A DNA stretch of 64,000 bases from Planctomycetota bacterium (GCA_965223845.1 CBDCXR010000004.1:2016001-2080000); one strand, 5' to 3'. Numbered from the stretch's first letter, positions 15,844 to 63,284 are shown. Numbers and translations are program-made. Notes: a model not told the origin generated them from the letters alone.

Positions 15844-17538
15844 TCAGGGCGACTCCGCTCGACCGCGTCCTTCGTGGAGAACGTGCACCGAGCGCGCGGC
15901 AAAGCTCCCGAACGACTCCGTCTTCCCATTCGGCCACCGGACTCGCACGCGGTCGACTTTCTCCACCGTCCCGAGACCGAAGTGGAGACGCAGCGAGTTC
16001 TGCGACAGATAGCTCGCCCCGGCGCGCACGGTGTCCGAAGCTCTGAGCTCGCCCGCTTCGATCGAAACCCGCGCGCCTATGGCGTGGCGATTCTTCACGC
16101 CGCGAAGCTCGAGGAGAATCCACGCACCGCGATTCCCGCCGTCATTGATGAGAACGCTCGGCCGTTCCCGCGAATTGCAGACGACGATGTCGAGATCGCC
16201 GTCGCCGTCGAGGTCACCGAACGCAGCGCCGCGACTCGAGCGGAGCTCTCGTAACCCCGGGCCCGCGGTGTCGGTGACCTCCTGCATCGATCCGTCCCCT
16301 CGATTCTCGAACAACTGGTTCTGTTGCCGATACGTGGACGACTGATCGTACCGATCGATCTGGTCTTCGAGGTGTCCGTTCGCGATGAAGAGATCGAGAT
16401 CCCCATCGTGATCGAAGTCAAAGAACTTCGTTCCCCAGCTCACCATCGGGAGACAGGTCTCGCCGAGACCTCGGCCCATCCCGGAATCGACGTAAAACCG
16501 ATCGCTCTCGTGCAGGTAGAACGCGTTCAATTGTTTTTGGTAGTTGGTGACGAAGACGTCCTCGAACCCGTCGCCGTCGACATCGCGGACGTCGACGCCC
16601 ATGCTGCCCTGTTCATCTCCGTTCACGCTGAGCGCCATGCCCCACTCGAGCCCCACGTTCTCGAACGTGCCGTCCCGTCGATTTCGCCACAGGAAGTTCT
16701 CGCTCCCGTCGTTCGCTACGTAGAGGTCGGGCCAGCCGTCGTCGTCGAAATCGGCGATGGTGACGCCCATACCTCGGCCGCTCGCGACGGCCGAGATGCC
16801 GGCCGCCTCCGTCACGTCCTCGAAGGTTCCATCCCCTCGATTGCGAAAGAGCGAATCGCCGGCAGGGGCGTACTGCGCCGGAGCGCAGTAACCGGGAACG
16901 CCGTTGTTGAGGCAAGGCTTCGCGCTGGCGAAATCCTGGACGCAGTAATTCGTCACGTAGAGATCGAGATCGCCGTCTCGGTCCATGTCGAAGAAGGTCG
17001 CGCCGGCGCTGAAGCGCGCGTCGTCGGCGCCCGCAGCGGCGGGGAGCGGGGAAAACGAGTAGCCCGCGTCGGCACCATCGTTGCGGTAGAGGACGTTGCT
17101 CCCGTACTGGCACACATATAGGTCGAGATCGCCGTCGCCGTCGATGTCACCGGCCACTGCGCCCGAAGCGAATCCCGTTCCCGGAACACCCCGCAGCTCG
17201 GTGACGTCGCGGAATCGACCGCGTCCGTCGTTTTCGTAGAGCGCGTTCCGCGCGCTCGAGTCTGTGGAGGGGGCGGGAGGGAGGGGACGGCCGTTCGGGA
17301 AGTAGAGATCGAGATCGCCGTCGCCGTCGAAGTCGAAGAGAACGACTCCCGAGGCGAGTGTCTCCACGATGTAGTAGCGCCCGGAGCTGCCGTCGGTGTG
17401 CTGCAGATCGACTCCGCGCGCTGCGCCCTCCTCGCGAAAGAGGACCTTGTCCGCGCTGCCGCCGGAACGATCGCCCGTGCAGGCAGTGGTGACGAGTGCG
17501 GCGGCCCACGCGAGAGTGGGAATCCGAAGGATCTTCAT
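15844..17538 (-). CDS. CRTAC1-like FG-GAP repeat / ASPIC-UnbV lipoprotein
   Basis: Lipobox 'VTTAC'. Repeated 'DFDGDGDLDLY' FG-GAP motifs. C-terminal ASPIC/UnbV 'GASYLSQNSLRLHFGLG...VRWPNG'. Confidence 0.92.
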   Translation of the reverse strand: MKILRIPTLAWAAALVTTACTGDRSGGSADKVLFREEGAARGVDLQHTDGSSGRYYIVETLASGVVLFDFDGDGDLDLYFPNGRPLPPAPSTDSSARNALYENDGRGRFRDVTELRGVPGTGFASGAVAGDIDGDGDLDLYVCQYGSNVLYRNDGADAGYSFSPLPAAAGADDARFSAGATFFDMDRDGDLDLYVTNYCVQDFASAKPCLNNGVPGYCAPAQYAPAGDSLFRNRGDGTFEDVTEAAGISAVASGRGMGVTIADFDDDGWPDLYVANDGSENFLWRNRRDGTFENVGLEWGMALSVNGDEQGSMGVDVRDVDGDGFEDVFVTNYQKQLNAFYLHESDRFYVDSGMGRGLGETCLPMVSWGTKFFDFDHDGDLDLFIANGHLEDQIDRYDQSSTYRQQNQLFENRGDGSMQEVTDTAGPGLRELRSSRGAAFGDLDGDGDLDIVVCNSRERPSVLINDGGNRGAWILLELRGVKNRHAIGARVSIEAGELRASDTVRAGASYLSQNSLRLHFGLGTVEKVDRVRVRWPNGKTESFGSFAARSVHVLHEGRGRAESP

Positions 17539-52131: not shown

Positions 52132-53205
52132 TCACTCCCGCGCGAGCAGTTCCCGGATGCGCGACACCGTCGGTACGCCCGGCTCGATCGCGATGACGCC
52201 GCCGTCTTCGTCCGTGATGAACGTCGCGGGAAGCAGATCCTCCCCAAATGTCTCGTTCACCTCGGCGCGAACCCGATCGCGGACTTCCGGCGCGAGATCG
52301 AGGAGGAGATGGTACGCGGGCCGATGCGTCGCCACGTACTCGCTGAGTTTCGTCCGTGTGTCCTTCTCGTCGACGGGGACCGCGAAGAGTCCGAGCTCAC
52401 TCGGAGCGAAGTGCTCGCGAAGACGCGCGACCTGCGCCTGCTCGCGCCGGCAAGCGGCACACCAGGTCGCCATCGTCGTGTAGAGACGGAGCGGCTCCCG
52501 TCCCGGGGCGGCGCGGGCGAGGCCCGCGAGACGCGGTCGCTCGACGGCGGGCGGCGTGGACGCTTCGGGTGCCGACCGGGGCTCCGAGTAGACGTCGCGC
52601 ACGAACGCCTCGCCGGACGGTGAGTGCGCAGGGTTTTCGTAGACGGTGAGCCGAGTCCCGACCGGCACGTTCCGCGTTTCGCTCTCGCGGCCGCTCGGCC
52701 ACCGAATCCGGATCCGATCGACGGCCCGGCGCGCGCCGACTCCGACGAGCAGCACCGCGCTGTTCTGAGCGGCGAAGCCTTCGCCTCCGCGGAGCTCGCG
52801 GACGAGCGTCACCTCACCGATCTCGACGTCGACGCGCGCGCCGTAGGCATCGCGCGCACTCCACTCGCGGCTCGGCGCCGCGCTTCGATTGCCTCCGCGG
52901 AGCGCGATTGCGACGATCCCCGCGGAAGCCGCCGCGGGAGTGTCGCCGATGCGATTGCGAAACAGCTGAAAGAGAGGTGCGTTCGCGCTGACGAGAGCGA
53001 TGTCCGTCCAGCCGTCGCGATCGAAATCGAGCGTCGCGAACGCGCGGCCGTCGCCCGAGTGGTCGAGACCCGAGATTCCCCCGGCGTCGAGGAACGAAGT
53101 TCCGGCGTCGCTCAAAAAGAGATGGTTTCGTTCGTGACCGCTGTGGGAGGCGCCGCGGTCCTCGTCGGCACCGCGGCGGCCCGACACATCGGCGGCGCGG
53201 CGCAT
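52132..53205 (-). CDS. ASPIC/UnbV + TlpA-like thioredoxin domain; C-terminal continuation of the upstream CRTAC1-like ORF in the same frame
   Basis: 'SHSGHERNHLF', FG-GAP 'DFDRDGWTDI', ASPIC 'GGEGFAAQNS...IRWPSG', Trx 'ATWCAACRRE'. In frame with the upstream TGA; 13 sense codons lie between the TGA and this ATG. Confidence 0.85.
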   Translation of the reverse strand: MRRAADVSGRRGADEDRGASHSGHERNHLFLSDAGTSFLDAGGISGLDHSGDGRAFATLDFDRDGWTDIALVSANAPLFQLFRNRIGDTPAAASAGIVAIALRGGNRSAAPSREWSARDAYGARVDVEIGEVTLVRELRGGEGFAAQNSAVLLVGVGARRAVDRIRIRWPSGRESETRNVPVGTRLTVYENPAHSPSGEAFVRDVYSEPRSAPEASTPPAVERPRLAGLARAAPGREPLRLYTTMATWCAACRREQAQVARLREHFAPSELGLFAVPVDEKDTRTKLSEYVATHRPAYHLLLDLAPEVRDRVRAEVNETFGEDLLPATFITDEDGGVIAIEPGVPTVSRIRELLARE

Positions 53206-53247
53206 GAGCGGGTCCGTGCGAACCGCACGGCGCCACCAATCGCTTCA
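53205..53247 (-). promoter_or_regulatory. In-frame UGA plus a candidate bacterial SECIS element
   Basis: Minus strand: TGA AGCGATTGGTGGCG CCGTGCG-GTT-CGCACGG ACC CGCTCA. The perfect 7-bp stem starts 14 nt after the UGA and has a G-U apical loop. Confidence 0.6.
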
Positions 53248-55341
53248 CAAGTCGCGCGGAATCTCGACGTCGCGCGGAGCGGTGTAGTACCCCGCGAGGG
53301 CGTAGATATCGAGGTCGGCATCGGCGTCGACGTCGACGAACTGACTTCCCCAGCCCCAACCGGCCCGCTCGACGGTGAGCGCGGGTGGATCGCCCGAAAC
53401 TTTGTCGAAGCGACCGTCCGGCCGGTTTCGAAAGAGCGAATTTCCCCGCATGGTGAGCTGAAATCGGGGATCGATCCCGGCGAGTTGGGGGACGATGCGC
53501 CGGCCCGCCTTCGAGTACATGTTCGTCACGTAGAGATCCAGACGGCCGTCGCGGTCGTAGTCACCCCACGAGACGCCCATCCCGAAACCGGTGTCGGCCG
53601 TGCCGGTCTCCGCGGTGACATCGACGAACGCGCCGCTGCCGTCGTTTCGAAACAAGTTGTTCGGACCGAAATCATTCGCGATGTAGACGTCGGCGTCGCC
53701 ATCCTCGTCGTAGTCGGCCCAGGTACTCTGGTAGCTCTGCCGAAATAGGTGAAGCGGGCTCTCGCGCATCACTTCGAATCGTCCGTCGCCCGCGTTCCTG
53801 AGGAGCACGTTCGGCGGTCCGTAGTCGTTCAGCACGGGCTGCCAGTCGCCTTTTTCGTGAATGAGTCGATAGAGCTGTCGCTCGTCTTCTTCGTCGAGAA
53901 ACGCCGCGAACGCCGCCGAGCCTCCCGCTGCCGATTGGCCGATGAGGGCCGCGTACGTCGAGAGGTAGACGTCGAGGAGACCGTCGCCGTCATAGTCGAC
54001 CGTTGAGATCGACGAAACGAGGTGGGGGAGTCGTCCCGCGACTCGACCGCTCCGCTCGATGAATCTCCCGCCGTCGTTCTCCAGATACTGACTCGGCGCG
54101 AGCGTGCGCCCGATGATCGCGTCGGGATCACCGTCGTTGTCGAAGTCTCCGAAGATCGCGCTCGAGCAATGATCGCGAATCGCGAGGCCGATCGCGGCGG
54201 CACACTCGGTGAAGGTGCCGTCGCCGTCGTTGCGAAAGAACTGATTCGCTCCCCAGCGCGCGAGGACATAGATGTCGTCGTCCCCGTCCGGCTCGACATC
54301 GACGACGGCGAGACCCGGATGGCGGTCCTGAGACTTCACGTAGAAGTGTTCGTGCGGACGCTCGAAGCTCTCGTCGGTGAAGGCGCGGAGGACGAGCTCT
54401 TCGTGGATCGAACGACGTGCGCTCACGAGCGCTTCGGGCTCGAGCGCGGAGTCGAGGACTTCGTCGAAGAGGAGGCGAGGGCTGTCGAGCCGCTCGATGT
54501 CTCGAAGCACCCAGCGGGCGATGGCGAACCCGGGCACCGACTCGTCGTCGGAGTCGCTCGTCTTCGTCCACTCGACACCCACGGTGGCTCGGATCGTACG
54601 CCACCCATCGGCCGAACGAGCGAGTGCGTCGAATGCGAGGTCGGACACGAACCGATTCGGATCGTCGTCCGCGAATCGTCCGCGAACAAACTTGAACTTC
54701 GCGTGACGGAAGTACGCGACGTCATCGAAGAGAGAACGCCAGAGGTCGAGATCTTCACGATCCACCTCCTTCACGACGCCTTCGACGCGTTCGACGAAAC
54801 GCGCTACGAGGGCGCCCGCCTCGAGCGGGGTCCGCGGAGATGCGCGATCCAAGAATTGGACGCGCGGTGCGAAGAGCGATCTCGCTCGTTCGTCGGGGAG
54901 GACGAGGTTGAGGACACTCCGCGAGAGAGAGGCGAGATGCGGGGTCAATCTCAGAATCGTCTCCTCGGATGCCTCCATGCGCTTCCACGCCGCGCGGAGC
55001 TCGCGGTCCGGGTCGATGAGTCGGTGATACCGCAGTCCGCCGTAGATGCCGCACAACACGGCGAGGAGCGCGAAGCCCTCGGCGGCGCGGCGGGCGAGAG
55101 GAGGAAACGGCCGCGTGCGCCGGAGCAAAAGCCACGCCCCGATCGCGGCGAGAATCCCCTGGAACCCGAGGATCACGAGACGAGCCGACGAGGAGCTGAT
55201 CGCTCCGTCGGGCGCAAATCCCGCCCCGAGGTAACGCCGATTGAGGAGGACCGCCGCGACGATCAAAAGGGCGCCCGCTAGCCGGGTCGAGCCCCGGCGC
55301 AGGAGAGCGATCGTCGGTCCGCCTTCTGTCATTCGATCCAT
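53245..55341 (-). CDS. Membrane-anchored FG-GAP repeat (CRTAC1-like) protein, N-terminal portion ending at the in-frame UGA
   Basis: ATG at 55341 after GGAAGAG; ~3 TMs; six FG-GAP motifs (DVEPDGDDDIY, DFDNDGDPD, DYDGDGLLDVY, DYDEDGDADVY, DYDRDGRLDLY, DVDADADLDIY); ends mid-propeller at 'PRDL*'. Confidence 0.88.
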   Translation of the reverse strand: MDRMTEGGPTIALLRRGSTRLAGALLIVAAVLLNRRYLGAGFAPDGAISSSSARLVILGFQGILAAIGAWLLLRRTRPFPPLARRAAEGFALLAVLCGIYGGLRYHRLIDPDRELRAAWKRMEASEETILRLTPHLASLSRSVLNLVLPDERARSLFAPRVQFLDRASPRTPLEAGALVARFVERVEGVVKEVDREDLDLWRSLFDDVAYFRHAKFKFVRGRFADDDPNRFVSDLAFDALARSADGWRTIRATVGVEWTKTSDSDDESVPGFAIARWVLRDIERLDSPRLLFDEVLDSALEPEALVSARRSIHEELVLRAFTDESFERPHEHFYVKSQDRHPGLAVVDVEPDGDDDIYVLARWGANQFFRNDGDGTFTECAAAIGLAIRDHCSSAIFGDFDNDGDPDAIIGRTLAPSQYLENDGGRFIERSGRVAGRLPHLVSSISTVDYDGDGLLDVYLSTYAALIGQSAAGGSAAFAAFLDEEDERQLYRLIHEKGDWQPVLNDYGPPNVLLRNAGDGRFEVMRESPLHLFRQSYQSTWADYDEDGDADVYIANDFGPNNLFRNDGSGAFVDVTAETGTADTGFGMGVSWGDYDRDGRLDLYVTNMYSKAGRRIVPQLAGIDPRFQLTMRGNSLFRNRPDGRFDKVSGDPPALTVERAGWGWGSQFVDVDADADLDIYALAGYYTAPRDVEIPRDL

Positions 55342-55673
55342 TCTCTTCCGATGAATCGGCCGGTCTCGTGGGGGGCCACCGGTCCGCCGCGATTTCCGGC
55401 GCGAGAAGCAAAACTCGGGCCCCGATTGTACCGGCGGCGCGGCGCGAAACCGATCGGAGCGACACGGGCAGATCGCAAGAACCGTGCCCGCGGCGCTCCG
55501 CCGTCCGCGACGCGGGCGTAGGTACGCTCCCGGGGCCGATCGGGCGACCCGGGAATTCCGCTCGGAACTGCGTCGCGCACGCCAGGACCAAAAGGCGTAC
55601 AATGGGAAATCCGTGTCCGCGCGCGGGCAGCGTCGCGGCGAGGTGTGGTCGGTGGCCCGAGGGGTAGACCCGA

Positions 55674-58226
55674 GTGCGAACGACGAGAGAACCATCCGGC
55701 GGAGGCGGTGTGTCTACGGCCGGAAGATTCCTAGAGTCTCGAAGAGCGAGCGTCACGCGCCCGAGCCGGATTCGTGCGTCGCTGCGCCTCGCGCATCGCC
55801 GCCGTCGTTGGCTCGCCGCCGCCGCGTGCTCGCTCGCGCTCTCCACGCTGACCGCGCACGACGACAAGGGTGAAGGGACGGCCGAGGAGCCCGGTTACAT
55901 CCCGGATCGCGACGGCTTCCCGCCGAGCCAGTTCGAGTCGCAGGGGATCACCCTCCTTTCGTGGATCTCGGGGACGGAGTTCGCGGAAACGCCTACCGCT
56001 GCGAACGATTGCTGGGGATATGTAGCGCCATCGGGACGCGAGTACGCGCTCATCGGACTCTCGATCGGAGTCGGAGTGGTCGACATCAGCGATCCGGACA
56101 GCGCCCGCCTCGTCGAGGTCGTGCCCGGAATGACGAGCCGCTTCCGCGACATCAAAACCTTCGCGACCTACGCGTATGCCGTAACAGAAGGAACTCACGA
56201 TGAAGAGGGAAACGGCATCCAGGTCATCGATCTGACTCACGTCGACGTGAACGTCGTGACGGAAGTCGCAACCGTCGACGACGACAACAACGGCCGCACG
56301 CACAACATCGCCGTCGACAGCGCGAGCGGCTTCCTCTACCGCTGCGGAGGAGGGGACGGATCGGCCGGGATTCGCGTCTACGATCTGTCCGACCCGGCGT
56401 CCCCTCAGCGAGTCGGCACGTGGAACAACCGCTACGTTCATGACGCGCAGGTCGTCACTCACACTCAAGGCGAGTACGCGGGGCGCGAGCTGGCCTATTG
56501 CTGCTCGAACACCGGATCGGGCGGGGGAGCGGCGGGGCTGCACATCCTCGACGTCACCGACAAGGACGAGATCACCGTCCTCGGGGCGACGACGTATCCC
56601 GGCGGCCGCCTCTCGCACCAGGGCTGGCTCTCGGAAGATCGGCGCTATTTCTTCCTCAACGACGAGCGCGACGAGCGCGACGAGGAGTGGACGACGACGA
56701 CGCACGTGATCGACGTGTCCGATCCGACGCAGCCGCTCGAGGTCGGCACGTTTACGAACGGTAGCGCCGCCACCGATCACAATCTCTACGTGCTCGGCGA
56801 TCGACTGTTCGCCGCGAACTACAAGAGCGGCCTTCGCGTCTTCGACATCGCAACGCCTCTCGCCGCCACCGAAGTGCGGTACTTCGACACTTACCCCGAG
56901 GAGACGGATCCGCAGCTCAACGGTCTCTGGAGTTGCTATCCGTTCTTTCCGAGCGGGGTCGTCATCGGAAGCGACATCAACCGCGGACTCTTCGTCTGGT
57001 GGGCGGACGATCCGCTCCTCGAGTTCGACTACGCCGGTGAGCGGCCGACGCTCGCGTCGAGCGGAGATGTCTTCGCCGTCACCATCACCGCGAGGACCGC
57101 CATCGCGCTCGATCCCGAGTCGGCGGAACTCCACATCGGAACCGGGGACGAATTCGAGTCGTTTCCGCTCGCGGCGCGCGGGGATGATCGATTCGACGTC
57201 ACGCTCGGTGATTACCCCTGCCTCGCGACGCTCGAGTACTACGTGAGCGCGGAGACCGTCAACGGCATCCGCTGGCGGGACCCGCCTACCGAGCCGGCCT
57301 TTCTCACCGTCGCCTGCGGTGACGATTGCGACGCCGACGGCGTGCCCGATGCCGAAGAGATCGCCGAGGGCGCGCCCGACTGCGATGCGGACGGAGTTCC
57401 CGACGGCTGCCAGCTCGAGAGCGGCGGTGCCGATTGCGACGGCAACGGCGTTCTCGATTCCTGCGAGCTCGAGAATGCGAGTGCCGACTGTGACGCGGAC
57501 GGAACCCTCGATTCCTGTCAGATCGCGAGTGGCGAATCCGACTGCGACGCGGACGGCATCCTCGATTCCTGCCAGATCGCGAATGGCGAGCCCGACTGCG
57601 ACGGAGACGGCGTCCTCGACTCCTGCGCCATCGCCGCCGGCGCGGGCGACTGCGACGCCGACGGTGTTCCCGACACCTGCGAAATCGAGAGTGGAGAAGC
57701 GGATTGCGATGCGAACGGGACCCCGGATTCGTGTGAGCTGAGCGGCGACGACTGCGATGGCGACGGGATTCTCGATTCCTGCGCAATCGCCCTGGGAGCG
57801 GGTGACTGCGACGGTGACGGCATTCTCGACACGTGCGAGCTTTCGGCCGGCGCCGAGGATTGCGACGGAAACGACATTCCCGACTCGTGCGAGCTCGCCG
57901 AACGGGATGCCGATGGCGACGGCATCCTCGATGCGTGCGAAGTCGCGTTTCTCCGGGGTGACGCCAACACCGACGCCGGGGTGGATATCTCGGACGCCGT
58001 CTTCGTCCTCCTCTATCTCTTCGCCGACACTCTCGACGACCCCAGTTGTCTCGCGGCTTGTGACGCCGACGAGTCGGGGACGGTGAATATCACGGACGCG
58101 TTCCGCATCCTCGCGAATCTCTTCGGCGTCCCCCCCGATGACCAGATCCTCCGGCCCGGTTGTGTCATCGACACGTCGGAGCCCTCTCTCTCGTGCGCGT
58201 CGTACGATTCGTGCGCCGACGGATAA
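55674..58226 (+). CDS. Choice-of-anchor B / LVIVD-repeat secreted protein with Cys/Asp-rich repeats and a dockerin-like tail
   Basis: 'ANDCWGYV..SGREYALIG', 'RDIKTF', 'THNIAVD', 'YVHDAQV', 'SHQGWLSED..YFFLNDE.DE', 'HNLYV', 'GLWSCYPFFPSG'; tail 'FLRGDANTDAGVDISDAVFVLLYLF'. Start uncertain. Confidence 0.88.
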   Translation: MRTTREPSGGGGVSTAGRFLESRRASVTRPSRIRASLRLAHRRRRWLAAAACSLALSTLTAHDDKGEGTAEEPGYIPDRDGFPPSQFESQGITLLSWISGTEFAETPTAANDCWGYVAPSGREYALIGLSIGVGVVDISDPDSARLVEVVPGMTSRFRDIKTFATYAYAVTEGTHDEEGNGIQVIDLTHVDVNVVTEVATVDDDNNGRTHNIAVDSASGFLYRCGGGDGSAGIRVYDLSDPASPQRVGTWNNRYVHDAQVVTHTQGEYAGRELAYCCSNTGSGGGAAGLHILDVTDKDEITVLGATTYPGGRLSHQGWLSEDRRYFFLNDERDERDEEWTTTTHVIDVSDPTQPLEVGTFTNGSAATDHNLYVLGDRLFAANYKSGLRVFDIATPLAATEVRYFDTYPEETDPQLNGLWSCYPFFPSGVVIGSDINRGLFVWWADDPLLEFDYAGERPTLASSGDVFAVTITARTAIALDPESAELHIGTGDEFESFPLAARGDDRFDVTLGDYPCLATLEYYVSAETVNGIRWRDPPTEPAFLTVACGDDCDADGVPDAEEIAEGAPDCDADGVPDGCQLESGGADCDGNGVLDSCELENASADCDADGTLDSCQIASGESDCDADGILDSCQIANGEPDCDGDGVLDSCAIAAGAGDCDADGVPDTCEIESGEADCDANGTPDSCELSGDDCDGDGILDSCAIALGAGDCDGDGILDTCELSAGAEDCDGNDIPDSCELAERDADGDGILDACEVAFLRGDANTDAGVDISDAVFVLLYLFADTLDDPSCLAACDADESGTVNITDAFRILANLFGVPPDDQILRPGCVIDTSEPSLSCASYDSCADG
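57325..57945 (+). repeat. Twelve ~18-aa 'DCDxDGxxDxC' (thrombospondin type-3-like, Ca-binding) coding repeats
   Basis: Counted directly in the translation. Confidence 0.85.
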
Positions 58227-60530: not shown

Positions 60531-63284
60531 ATGACGGGTAGGAATCTAGCGGTTTTGGCGACAGTGGTGTTCTTCGGCGCGGCCACGCCGACCCATGCGT
60601 TCGAAGTCCTCGGCGTCGGAACGGAGTCCCTTCTCGGCGACGACCTCACGGACATAGACAACGACGGGGACCAACTGCTCTACGCCGCGCCGGACGAGCT
60701 CGGATTCTTCGACGCCGAGTTCTTCTCGAGCGACGAGCCGGGCTTCGAGGGGGGTGAGTTCGCGTTCAACGTCTTCGACAACATTCTCGGGCCGGGGAAC
60801 GACAAGTGGTGTTGTGGAACCTCGTTCCCGCAGATCGTCGGCGCCGATTTCCGCAACACGCACGACGCGTCGTTTCTCCTCACTCACTTCACCGTTTCGT
60901 CGGCGAACGACGTTCCGGAACGCGACCCGCGCGTCTGGACGATCGAAGGATCGAACGACGGCGAATGCTGGGAGACAATCTTCATCCAGAGCGATCCCGC
61001 CGCGAGCCTGTGGACCGAACGCCTTCAAGTCATCGAGTTTCGCGAAGGCGAGGATTACGACGAGCAGGAACGCGCGTACTCCATGTTCCGCATGGTGACG
61101 CTCGCGACGGGGCTCGCGGGCGGTGCGTTCTTTCAAATCGGCGAAATCGAGTTCTTCGGGGAAGAAGATGATCCGCCGGCCGACTGCATCGGAGCGCAGT
61201 GCACGGATTCGGTCGAAAACGTCACTTGCGCGTTCGGCCCGGTGGGGGACGGTGAAGGGATCACGGTGTCCTGGGACGAGACCTGCGAGTGCGAGGATCC
61301 GACGCTTCTCCTCATCGACGGCGCAGAGGTCGCATCGGTCGAGCCGGGGACGACGACCGCGGAGATCCCCGCCACGGAGTTCCCCGACGGAGTTTTCTCC
61401 GTAGAGGTGCGGAACTGTAGCGGATTCGGTACGACCTGTAGCGGCTTTAAGACGACGTCAACCGGGTACATCGTCGGGAACTCTTGGCTAGCTCTCGGTC
61501 CCTTCGCTACGCCCGTCGCCTGTGACGGTGACGAAACCCAGCTTCTCACGAACCATATCGGACCGGACGAGACGCTTCAGTGTCAGTTCCCGGCCGACGG
61601 CGACCCCGTCGAGGGGTATGAGCCGGGTGATCCACTCTTTCCGGATCCCGATCTCGCGTCGACGTTCGGCTACCACCCCGACGCCCCGACAGACGATGAC
61701 GGGAACCCGATTTGGCGGCCCTACCAGGACGCGACGCCGACCGACGCCGACCTCGACTTCGATTCGGACATCGCCGGCAATCTGAACGAGCACGTTCTCT
61801 TCATCGCGACGTGGGTCGAGAACACGAGCGACGAACCTATCGAGATCTCCGCTTGCTTCGGAAGCGACGACGATCCCCAGGCTTGGCTCGACGACCAGCT
61901 CATCTGGAGCACCCCGGCGTGTCGCGGTCGCGGGGACTGCAACGACCAGGTGTTCTTCACTCTCCCGCCCGGGGTCCACGTGATCAAGCTGGGCGCCTGG
62001 GAACAGGGCGGCGGCTGGGGTGTCCGCTTCAGCCTTCGCGATGCGGCGACGCTCGAGCCGATCGTGGACCTCGCGGACGGCCTCGTCGCTCTTCCGATCG
62101 GGGCCTCGCCGTTCAGCGAAGACATCATCTTCCACGGCCGAACCCGTCCCGAAGGATTCGAGGAGCCGGAGTGCGGTGATGGCTGCTCAACGGTCACCGA
62201 TCTCACCTGTGAGCGCGACGACGACGGCTCGGTCGAGCTCGTCTGGACGAATCCCGACGGTTGCGACAGCGAGATCCGCATCCTCGCGGGGAACGAGGAG
62301 CTCGCCGTCCTTCCCGCGGGATCGGATACGTTCGCGATCGACGGCGGCGACCTCGAGTCCGTCTCGACCCTTTCCGTCGACAACGGGTCGCTGGCGCCCG
62401 CGAGCTGCTCGCTCATCGAGTTCAGCGATCTCCTTCTCGGAAACGATCTCACCGATCTCGACGACGACGGCGACCCGATCCTCTACGCACCTCCGGACGA
62501 TTTCGGCCTCTTCGACGCAGAGTTCTTCTCGAGCGACGAACCGGGATTCGAAGGCGGCGAGTTCGCGTTCAACGTCTTCGACAACGTCGTCGGCGGTGGG
62601 AACGAGAAGTGGTGCTGCGGTACGGTTTTCCCGCAGATCGTCGGCGCGGATTTCTCCGAGTTCGATGGCCCGTTCCGGCTGACTCACTTCACGGTCGCTT
62701 CGGCCAATGATACGCCCGCGCGTGATCCACGCGTCTGGCGCATCGAGGGCTCGAATGACGGCGAAGAGTGGACGACGATCTATTCGCAGGACGATCCCAC
62801 GAGCGCGGTGTGGACCGCGCGCAATCAAGTCGCTGTCTTCCGCGGCGGTCGTGACTTCCCCGAGCAAACCGAAGCCTTCATGATGTTCCGAATGATCACG
62901 GAAGCGACGGGGCTCACGGCGGGAGCGTTTTTCCAAATCTCCGAGATCGAGCTCTTCGGCGATGAGGGCGGAGGCCCGGTGGGCGCATTGCTCCTACCCG
63001 GGGACGTCAACCTCGACCGAGGTTTCAACATCGCCGACATGATCGCACTCCTCAATTTCCTCTTCGGCGACGGAACCCTCGACGCGTGCCTCGCGGCTCC
63101 GGATGTCGAGCCCGCGGAGTACACGGCAGCGGGATTCGCCGTGATCGACTTCAACGGGGACGGCGGCGTGAACATCGCGGACGCGATCGGAGGGCTGAAT
63201 CGGCTCTTCGGAGACGGCGGGCCGCACGTGCTCGGACTCGAGTGCATCCGTCGCCCGGGGACGTGCGTTAACGCGTGTCCGTAA
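60531..63284 (+). CDS. Secreted protein with duplicated discoidin/F5-8C-like domains, a PA14-like middle region and a dockerin-like tail
   Basis: GGAGG SD; signal peptide (…THA/FE); two near-identical 'SANDxPxRDPRVW.IEGSNDG..W...FQI.EIE' domains; 'FGSDD...W.D'; tail 'PGDVNLDRGFNIADMIALLNFLF...DFNGDGGVNIADAI'. Confidence 0.82.
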   Translation: MTGRNLAVLATVVFFGAATPTHAFEVLGVGTESLLGDDLTDIDNDGDQLLYAAPDELGFFDAEFFSSDEPGFEGGEFAFNVFDNILGPGNDKWCCGTSFPQIVGADFRNTHDASFLLTHFTVSSANDVPERDPRVWTIEGSNDGECWETIFIQSDPAASLWTERLQVIEFREGEDYDEQERAYSMFRMVTLATGLAGGAFFQIGEIEFFGEEDDPPADCIGAQCTDSVENVTCAFGPVGDGEGITVSWDETCECEDPTLLLIDGAEVASVEPGTTTAEIPATEFPDGVFSVEVRNCSGFGTTCSGFKTTSTGYIVGNSWLALGPFATPVACDGDETQLLTNHIGPDETLQCQFPADGDPVEGYEPGDPLFPDPDLASTFGYHPDAPTDDDGNPIWRPYQDATPTDADLDFDSDIAGNLNEHVLFIATWVENTSDEPIEISACFGSDDDPQAWLDDQLIWSTPACRGRGDCNDQVFFTLPPGVHVIKLGAWEQGGGWGVRFSLRDAATLEPIVDLADGLVALPIGASPFSEDIIFHGRTRPEGFEEPECGDGCSTVTDLTCERDDDGSVELVWTNPDGCDSEIRILAGNEELAVLPAGSDTFAIDGGDLESVSTLSVDNGSLAPASCSLIEFSDLLLGNDLTDLDDDGDPILYAPPDDFGLFDAEFFSSDEPGFEGGEFAFNVFDNVVGGGNEKWCCGTVFPQIVGADFSEFDGPFRLTHFTVASANDTPARDPRVWRIEGSNDGEEWTTIYSQDDPTSAVWTARNQVAVFRGGRDFPEQTEAFMMFRMITEATGLTAGAFFQISEIELFGDEGGGPVGALLLPGDVNLDRGFNIADMIALLNFLFGDGTLDACLAAPDVEPAEYTAAGFAVIDFNGDGGVNIADAIGGLNRLFGDGGPHVLGLECIRRPGTCVNACP

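Follow-up and report, generated by a model that had tools for sequence, protein, structure and literature searches.

A candidate selenoprotein family built on a CRTAC1-type FG-GAP propeller: an in-frame UGA followed by a conserved SECIS-like hairpin in a Planctomycetota genome

The archetype of the selenocysteine insertion sequence (SECIS) that bacteria carry inside an open reading frame (ORF) is that of Escherichia coli fdhF, and the bacterial consensus given in section 5 of a 2026 review comprises a stem of at least 4 bp, a loop of 3 to 9 nt whose first two positions include a G with G or U after it, 16 to 37 nt between UGA and loop, and an energy of -7.5 kcal/mol or lower (PMC13188914). Section 7 of the same review describes a catalogue dominated by thioredoxin-fold proteins. 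Two further described groups provide the frame for this report, namely CRTAC1 and the bacterial ASPIC-UnbV FG-GAP proteins, in which a calcium-loop FG-GAP propeller is followed by a UnbV/ASPIC domain, and the thiol-disulfide oxidoreductases of the TlpA/ResA/DsbE type, which have a thioredoxin fold with WCxxC. Here we describe a gene at 52132..55341 on the minus strand of a 64,000-nt stretch of DNA from a Planctomycetota bacterium (GCA_965223845.1 CBDCXR010000004.1:2016001-2080000; hereafter the window, meaning the whole stretch) that combines features of all three and whose codon 699, a UGA, is on comparative sequence evidence very probably decoded as selenocysteine (Sec), making this a genuine selenoprotein gene. 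Our best explanation, to which we assign a probability of roughly 0.85, is one gene with Sec inserted by the SelB pathway, encoding an anchored propeller-ASPIC-thioredoxin protein in which the thioredoxin domain would reduce the Sec.

An earlier note on this DNA, made from the sequence alone, had claimed two ORFs in one frame parted by nothing more than a TGA, together giving a 1069-codon read-through gene, and both the sequence and the reading of the ORFs agree with it. The ORFs 53245..55695 and 52132..53205 (minus strand) share their frame, and the read-through product has 1069 residues, with the TGA at 53245..53247 (minus strand) as its sole internal TGA, the proposed Sec codon at residue 699 (...PRDL-U-SDWWRRAV...). 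The surrounding minus-strand codons run ...CCG CGC GAC TTG TGA AGC GAT TGG TGG CGC CGT GCG GTT CGC ACG GAC CCG CTC ATG..., the TGA being separated from the ATG at 53205 by 13 sense codons. The gene closes with a terminal TGA at 52132-52134. The most plausible start is the ATG at 55341; upstream of it the frame stays open as far as an ATG at 55695, a start that would overlap a divergent gene beginning at 55674. The match of the ortholog L021 (46% identity) extends over query residues 60-1066 and thus spans the TGA.

Conservation of the codon is the first line of evidence for Sec. When the read-through protein was searched against 41 genomes (that of the window, G000, and 40 relatives), exactly one TGA was present in each of the 33 top-ranked matches, and the first match without one, at rank 34, covers query residues 91-471 and falls short of the site. 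The TGA occupies the identical column in 30 of the 30 relatives' and paralogous genes checked, eight of them in the genome of the window, where all eight motif-bearing genes have it. Among the relatives' loci, every one that reaches the site (19/19) has TGA in that column; L036 stops short of the site. The motif shared by relatives reads NGF-x(7-9)-D-L-U-S-F-F-W-R-Q-V-V, and four more distant genes keep the TGA with a differing peptide after it (DLUPTFLENV, DLUAEFN, DLUMDFVENV). In each gene the frame around the TGA is open for at least 501 codons before it and at least 189 after it. A scan of other genomes, one per species, found TGA at the column in 29 of 80 kept loci, from Planctomycetota, Verrucomicrobiota, Acidobacteriota and others, including one metagenome-assembled genome (MAG) labelled Proteobacteria; the locus in that MAG, L057, is the closest to the window gene among the scanned loci, at 48% identity. 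The conservation across genomes that the earlier note had put forward as a check is therefore present in relatives, paralogs and more distant genomes, and over all 59 genes the codon is TGA, never TAA or TAG.

A lone in-frame stop in an otherwise intact gene resembles a new nonsense mutation, and the locus could accordingly be read as a pseudogene or a sequencing error. We give that reading next to no credence, since the same codon stands in the same column in all relatives checked and in eight genes of the genome itself, the TGA-bearing genes have no other stops or frameshifts, and the hairpin that follows the codon is conserved.

That hairpin is the second line of evidence. Fourteen nucleotides past the UGA begins a perfect SECIS-like apical hairpin, CCGUGCG-GUU-CGCACGG (53214..53230, minus strand; 7 bp, -10.4 kcal/mol), reported in the earlier note at the same distance and positions (53230-53214) and recovered here from the sequence; its loop begins 21 nt past the UGA with G then U. 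The window-gene hairpin can alternatively be drawn with 6 bp and the loop GGUUC. In its GUU loop, 7-bp stem, 21-nt spacing and energy of -10.4 kcal/mol it fits the consensus for bacterial in-ORF elements of the fdhF kind, and, as in those systems, selA, selB, selC and selD are in the genome. The differences from fdhF are that the host protein is unrelated to formate dehydrogenase and that the family has its own loop consensus, GGUC(G). Below the apical hairpin, folding of the single sequence predicts an extended stem (53197..53248, minus strand; minimum free energy, or MFE, -27.4 kcal/mol), so that the idea of a lower stem survives in part: the fold does continue the hairpin downwards, but not by pairing the UGA with CGCUCA, as had been drawn. 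In the MFE structure UGGUGG pairs with CCCG.CU, and a GUG overlapping the UGA pairs with a later CGC.

To compare genes we defined a strict hairpin as a perfect stem of at least 5 bp with a loop of 3 to 5 nt opening with G then G or U, 16 to 22 nt past the UGA, at -6 kcal/mol or lower. Such a hairpin follows the TGA in all 30 of the 30 sites, compared with 252 of 34013 other in-frame positions (0.74%) in the same genes. The stems themselves differ between subfamilies: GCGACA/UGUCGC, GCGGCA/UGCCGC, CCGGUGC/GCACCGG and, in the window gene, CCGUGCG/CGCACGG, with GGCGCCAC/GUGGCGUC and AGAACGUC/GGCGUUCU in further subfamilies. At least six unrelated stem sequences hold a common loop, GGUC(G), GUG or GUU. 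In the scan of other genomes, 23 of 29 TGA genes carry the strict hairpin; of the six that fail it, four have one stem mismatch, L061 has a weak hairpin (-2.5 kcal/mol) and L073 narrowly misses the energy limit (-5.6 kcal/mol). Of nine non-Sec loci with the peptide motif intact, two carry the strict hairpin, and neither of two Cys loci does.

Covariation was scored on 34 distinct hairpins with 5-nt loops (alignment A5), leaving out nine with 4-nt loops (A6), because in MAFFT alignments of the hairpin region across subfamilies (A1, A4) the 4-nt-loop hairpins lie out of register. The stems score 0.261 for covariation; shuffles give 0.113, with none of 500 reaching the observed value, and slid partners give no more than 0.094. 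A conserved hairpin, which had been suggested as a check, is accordingly found both by its presence after the TGA sites and by the covariation of its stems. Pair 6-16 alone occurs as six pair types in the 34 hairpins (AU 10, GU 9, GC 5, CG 4, UA 2, UG 2). Because this pair joins the synonymous third base of an Arg codon to the first base of a codon for S, P, A or T, RNA structure here constrains a protein residue. The residue eight codons past Sec tracks the paired Arg codon, in the combinations CGA-UCG, CGG-CCG, CGC-GCG and CGU-ACG (hairpins L022-L089, e.g., L025, L022, L060 and L089). Once relatives are counted in, the association of TGA and hairpin is far beyond chance.

The same data bear on the possibility that the TGA is a true stop, giving a truncated propeller and a separate ASPIC-thioredoxin protein from the ATG at 53205. 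An ATG 13 codons past the TGA could indeed start a second protein, and when selenium is scarce termination at a Sec-UGA is a normal by-product. Two proteins are nevertheless quite improbable as the whole account: the 13 codons past the TGA are homologous in frame to the peptide of relatives (SDWWRRAVRTD compared with SNLWRTVVRAD and SFFWRQVV), the stop would break the predicted propeller between blades, non-TGA homologs are single chains, and a covarying hairpin accompanies a codon that is never TAA or TAG.

A third line of evidence is the Sec machinery of the genome that holds the window (7.93 Mb, 65% G+C). It encodes a tRNA-Sec (68.1 bits, above the cut-off; called SeC with anticodon TCA by ARAGORN), selB (352.7 bits), selA (536 bits) and selD (308 bits), each of these three above its curated cut-off. 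All four components are therefore in the genome, and all four lie outside the window, in which the earlier note had found no sel genes. The selD match (G000:C4:5317241-5318161) sits in an 809-codon open frame, far longer than plain SelD, which could be a fusion or a long open stretch of high-G+C DNA.

Hairpins 3' of stop codons can stimulate read-through in some systems, and the UGA might be read by a near-cognate tRNA with the help of the hairpin, or a changed code might assign UGA to a standard amino acid. This is very improbable, more so than a true stop: the gene's own terminator is TGA; selA, selB, selD and the matches that fall short of the site contain no internal stops; neither W nor G is favored at the column in non-TGA homologs (62 of 150 matches listed, as described below); and the loop and spacing fit the SelB-type consensus in a genome with a complete Sec system. 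On the comparative evidence of TGA and hairpin we reject a pseudogene, a sequencing error, a split gene and a changed genetic code alike. We read the locus as a single gene with Sec because of the conserved UGA, the covarying hairpin, the Sec machinery and the homology on both sides of the UGA, and the Sec interpretation with which the earlier note began is supported by the first three of these.

Read through in this way, the gene encodes a chain with a domain order that the note had also described. The FG-GAP/VCBS beta-propeller with DxDxDG calcium-loop motifs covers residues ~343-800 (52942..54315, minus strand) and matches Pfam FG-GAP_3 (PF13517) in five stretches (E 4e-40, 136.7 bits, above the cut-off); the UnbV/ASPIC domain (PF07593) covers residues 832-899 (52645..52848, minus strand; E 1.6e-16, 60.4 bits, cut-off 23.4). 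These two domains fall in one chain only if the TGA is read through. The C-terminal thioredoxin-fold domain, of the TlpA/ResA/StoA type by Pfam and fold match, covers residues 953-1064 (52150..52485, minus strand), with a marginal match to AhpC-TSA at residues 953-1050 (26.8 bits, cut-off 26) and one to Redoxin under its cut-off (24.7 bits against 26.6). WCAAC is at residues 960-964, and its CAAC, 961-964, is at 52450-52461 of the window (minus strand). Pfam and the position of this motif agree with the proposal of FG-GAP, ASPIC/UnbV and a WCAAC thioredoxin domain in one protein.

The N-terminal hydrophobic region, residues 21-103 (55033..55281, minus strand), had been described as three transmembrane segments. 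A 19-residue hydropathy window leaves a single clear membrane segment at 53-74, the other two, at 21-33 and 87-102, being shorter hydrophobic stretches. A topology with the N terminus inside, three spans and the body outside would fit the distribution of N-terminal charges, and paralogs have lipoprotein-like or signal-like sequences at the N termini of their translations. We infer that the body of the protein is extracytoplasmic.

An AlphaFold2 (AF2) model of residues 330-1069, built with 18 sequences (mean predicted local distance difference test, or pLDDT, 79.9; predicted template modeling score 0.74), lays out a propeller, then a beta domain, then a thioredoxin fold. Sec, numbered 370 in the model, lies where a predicted helix (369-380) begins, between strands 349-354 and 411-415, which places it in a predicted insert between two propeller blades; the claim that the stop falls between FG-GAP blades is thus consistent with the model, at low local confidence. 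The top fold match of the model in the PDB is murine CRTAC1 (9etn_A; E 5e-28, template modeling score 0.69 on the target), and 9etn is the sole match in a PDB sequence search with the whole protein. The window protein shares with CRTAC1 and the bacterial ASPIC-UnbV proteins the calcium-loop propeller followed by UnbV/ASPIC, and CRTAC1 differs in having no thioredoxin domain. The profile alignment to CRTAC1 misses the Sec insert, with profile positions ~120-170 unmatched, and no equivalent residue can therefore be named. To our knowledge, no redox role is known for CRTAC1, and no paper on PDB 9etn turned up in the literature search.

The C-terminal domain resembles the thiol-disulfide oxidoreductases in its thioredoxin fold with WCxxC and in its fold matches to StoA (3erw_G) and ResA (2f9s_A). 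It differs in that the Sec lies ~260 residues upstream, in the propeller and outside the thioredoxin domain. NCBIfam scores lie far under the cut-offs for ResA (26.6 against 170), TlpA (21.1 against 230) and DsbE (15.7 against 123), which places the domain outside those families.

How might a Sec in a propeller be put to use? Under our explanation, the SelB pathway would recode UGA-699 to Sec, guided by the small hairpin that begins 14 nt past the UGA and opens its apical loop with G-U. The product, of about 1069 residues, would consist of a membrane anchor, a CRTAC1-type calcium-loop propeller, UnbV/ASPIC and a TlpA/ResA-like CxxC domain. Its Sec would be a redox-active residue oxidized by an envelope substrate, perhaps a peroxide or an oxidized envelope component, and we hold any particular substrate with low confidence. 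Oxidized Sec would be reduced by the fused CxxC domain, and a CcdA/DsbD-like electron carrier of the membrane would return that domain to its reduced state.

Co-occurrence is what makes this the best-supported mechanism. We searched for the domain with a hidden Markov model built from the thioredoxin part of alignment A3 among the 59 TGA genes, of which four are cut short by a contig or locus end and 55 are long enough. Forty-eight TGA genes have the thioredoxin domain, and every one of them (48/48) has CxxC, compared with 7 of the 43 non-Sec, non-Cys homologs that have the domain and 2 of the 3 such Cys homologs. In a test on independent pairs (FastTree, 121 sequences, 6 supported pairs), CxxC changed the same way as Sec in a mean of 3.5 pairs, the opposite way in 0.0, and showed no difference in 2.5. 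A redox role for Sec with recycling by the fused thioredoxin domain is, on this pattern of genes, about an even prospect. The recycling proposed in the earlier note therefore gains the co-occurrence and falls short on the pair test, whose result is not significant (below).

In the thioredoxin-TPR (tetratricopeptide repeat) subfamily (L022, L025, L050, L055 and others), a motif S-W-S-G-x-E-R-N-C is conserved with its Cys ~45 residues past Sec, and this may be a resolving Cys in that subfamily. At this position the window gene and its ortholog L021 have His; L038, L039 and L052 have R or K. The Sec genes that have no thioredoxin domain are L058, L059 and L100, from Pirellulaceae MAGs, and L046-L049; L058, L059 and L100 are of the subtype of the window gene (SGFYTAP...DLUSCNWR).

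What stands at the site in homologs without Sec was surveyed with a profile of the site region, which matched 88889 proteins at E <=0.001 and 10326 at E <=1e-30. Of 150 matches listed, 62 were kept, those whose best stretch spans the whole profile, the other 88 being multi-repeat giants or partial matches. This protein-database set is non-Sec by construction, as TGA forms cannot appear in it unsplit. The Sec column of the 62 holds E 16, S 13, N 8, D 7, A 6, C 4, M 4, Q 2, G 1 and R 1. Cys forms at the site also occur in loci L045, L096 and L110. The Cys that the note would have counted as support is found in a few homologs, the other 58 of the 62 having a residue other than Cys. L045 (G012:C145), a Cys form with RDY-C-SEFWRHDVY, has one in-frame TAG elsewhere in the match.

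In some homologs the whole insert is missing. One is the paralog at 15844..17538 (minus strand; 564 aa), which has no in-frame stop and neither the Sec-loop insert nor its motif, and in which Pfam places propeller and ASPIC in one chain, as the note had stated. Non-TGA homologs mostly have neither the hairpin nor the thioredoxin CxxC. A variable non-Cys residue at the site together with an unconserved hairpin had been named as grounds for abandoning Sec; the residue is variable, and the TGA genes of other genomes keep the hairpin at the frequency given above. As the non-TGA homologs have also lost the hairpin, the variable residue is not evidence against Sec in the TGA genes.

Several observations weigh against our explanation or parts of it. 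The single-sequence fold of the extended stem beats shuffles modestly (z -2.1), with 8 of 200 shuffles as stable, and Rfam gave no family match in window 52900-53500 at E up to 1. The AF2 model is unreliable near Sec, with pLDDT below 50 at model residues 357-369 and 374-407. selA is present in all five of five genomes with non-Sec variants, which means that a lost machinery does not account for the missing Sec, and selA is present in 4 of 5 TGA-variant genomes checked, one having no selA match. Cys stands at the site in just 4 of the 62 matches kept from those listed, an uncommon pattern for a catalytic Sec that is compatible with a non-catalytic role. Seven of the 55 Sec genes stop after ASPIC without a thioredoxin domain, and none was found within ~1.2 kb downstream of those seven. 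The association of Sec with CxxC has a consistent direction but is not significant on the six pairs (median p 0.25), a test that is underpowered. Of these, the minority status of Sec-Cys pairs, an unusual feature in the homologs compared, is the main point against a simple replacement of a catalytic Cys by Sec.

The genome without a selA match is G046, that of L057, a 12.7-Mb MAG labelled Proteobacteria, and the missing match may come from an incomplete or mixed bin. Presence of selA was rejected as a discriminator between Sec and non-Sec forms.

Some of the points above suit a different account of the Sec residue, in which it is inserted and is not a catalytic residue recycled by thioredoxin: it would bind a soft metal or selenium or sulfur species, or cap a helix, and the thioredoxin domain would act elsewhere. 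Residues of the E, S, N, D and A type, such as predominate at the site in non-Sec homologs, are typical of a helix N-cap or a metal ligand. The Sec genes that have no thioredoxin domain in cis or nearby and the pair test also fit it. Against it stand the presence of CxxC in every Sec gene with the domain, compared with fewer than one in five of the non-Sec, non-Cys homologs, and the absence of opposite-way changes on the independent pairs (mean 0.0 of 6). Section 7 of the review likewise places Sec in redox catalysis for most known selenoproteins (PMC13188914). We consider a non-catalytic Sec possible and, on balance, unlikely; the recycled redox residue is the role that we prefer.

The novelty lies in the family rather than in the decoding. 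The earlier note knew of no such family among described selenoproteins, and the family is absent from Table 1 (119 families) of the 2026 review and from its main text by word search (PMC13188914), and likewise by word search from the main texts of BSepDB (PMC13326102) and deep-Sep (PMC12013277). The supplements of these sources may bear on priority, and the newness of the family needs to be qualified to that extent. Word search of the main text of PMC13188914 also found no beta-propeller selenoprotein. A literature search pairing selenoprotein or selenocysteine with FG-GAP, ASPIC, UnbV, CRTAC1 or VCBS gave nothing relevant, and the main text of a study of planctomycetes P1 and P2, which treats fdhA, fmdB and sel genes only, has no occurrence of ASPIC or FG-GAP (Kim et al. 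2016, PLoS One; PMC4807772). The recoding mechanism is the ordinary bacterial one, and the family is a large one, absent from the main texts of the 2025-2026 catalogues. Gene callers split these genes in two, and the family is consequently invisible as a selenoprotein family in protein databases.

We tentatively propose, with rather less than even confidence, that these genes represent a large overlooked class of extracytoplasmic selenoenzymes on a CRTAC1-type propeller, with Sec at a mostly non-Cys position, a built-in thioredoxin reductant and many gains and losses; the FastTree phylogeny of 121 sequences implies at least 14 changes of Sec state. If this is true, the family could outnumber every other selenoprotein family in many Planctomycetota, Verrucomicrobiota and Acidobacteriota, given eight copies in one genome, and would provide the first catalytic function for the ASPIC/UnbV-CRTAC1 fold. 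Eight copies here and 29 of 80 loci elsewhere would alter selenoproteome counts for several abundant marine and soil phyla. With Sec in the propeller and a thioredoxin domain joined to it in one chain, the protein points to a new redox activity of the cell envelope and offers a testable function for bacterial ASPIC/UnbV (CRTAC1-like) proteins. The alignment of Sec mainly with non-Cys residues points to an unusual pattern of origin and decay of Sec sites.

Ten neighboring ORFs were scanned against Pfam, and no redox partner gene was found among them. Two of the neighbors, the only ones with a Pfam match, encode proteins that are probably exported and have no evident link to the selenoprotein gene: the divergent gene at 55674..58226 (plus strand) has a weak match to LVIVD repeats, and the ORF at 60531..63284 (plus strand; 917 aa) has an F5/8 type C (galactose-binding-like) domain.

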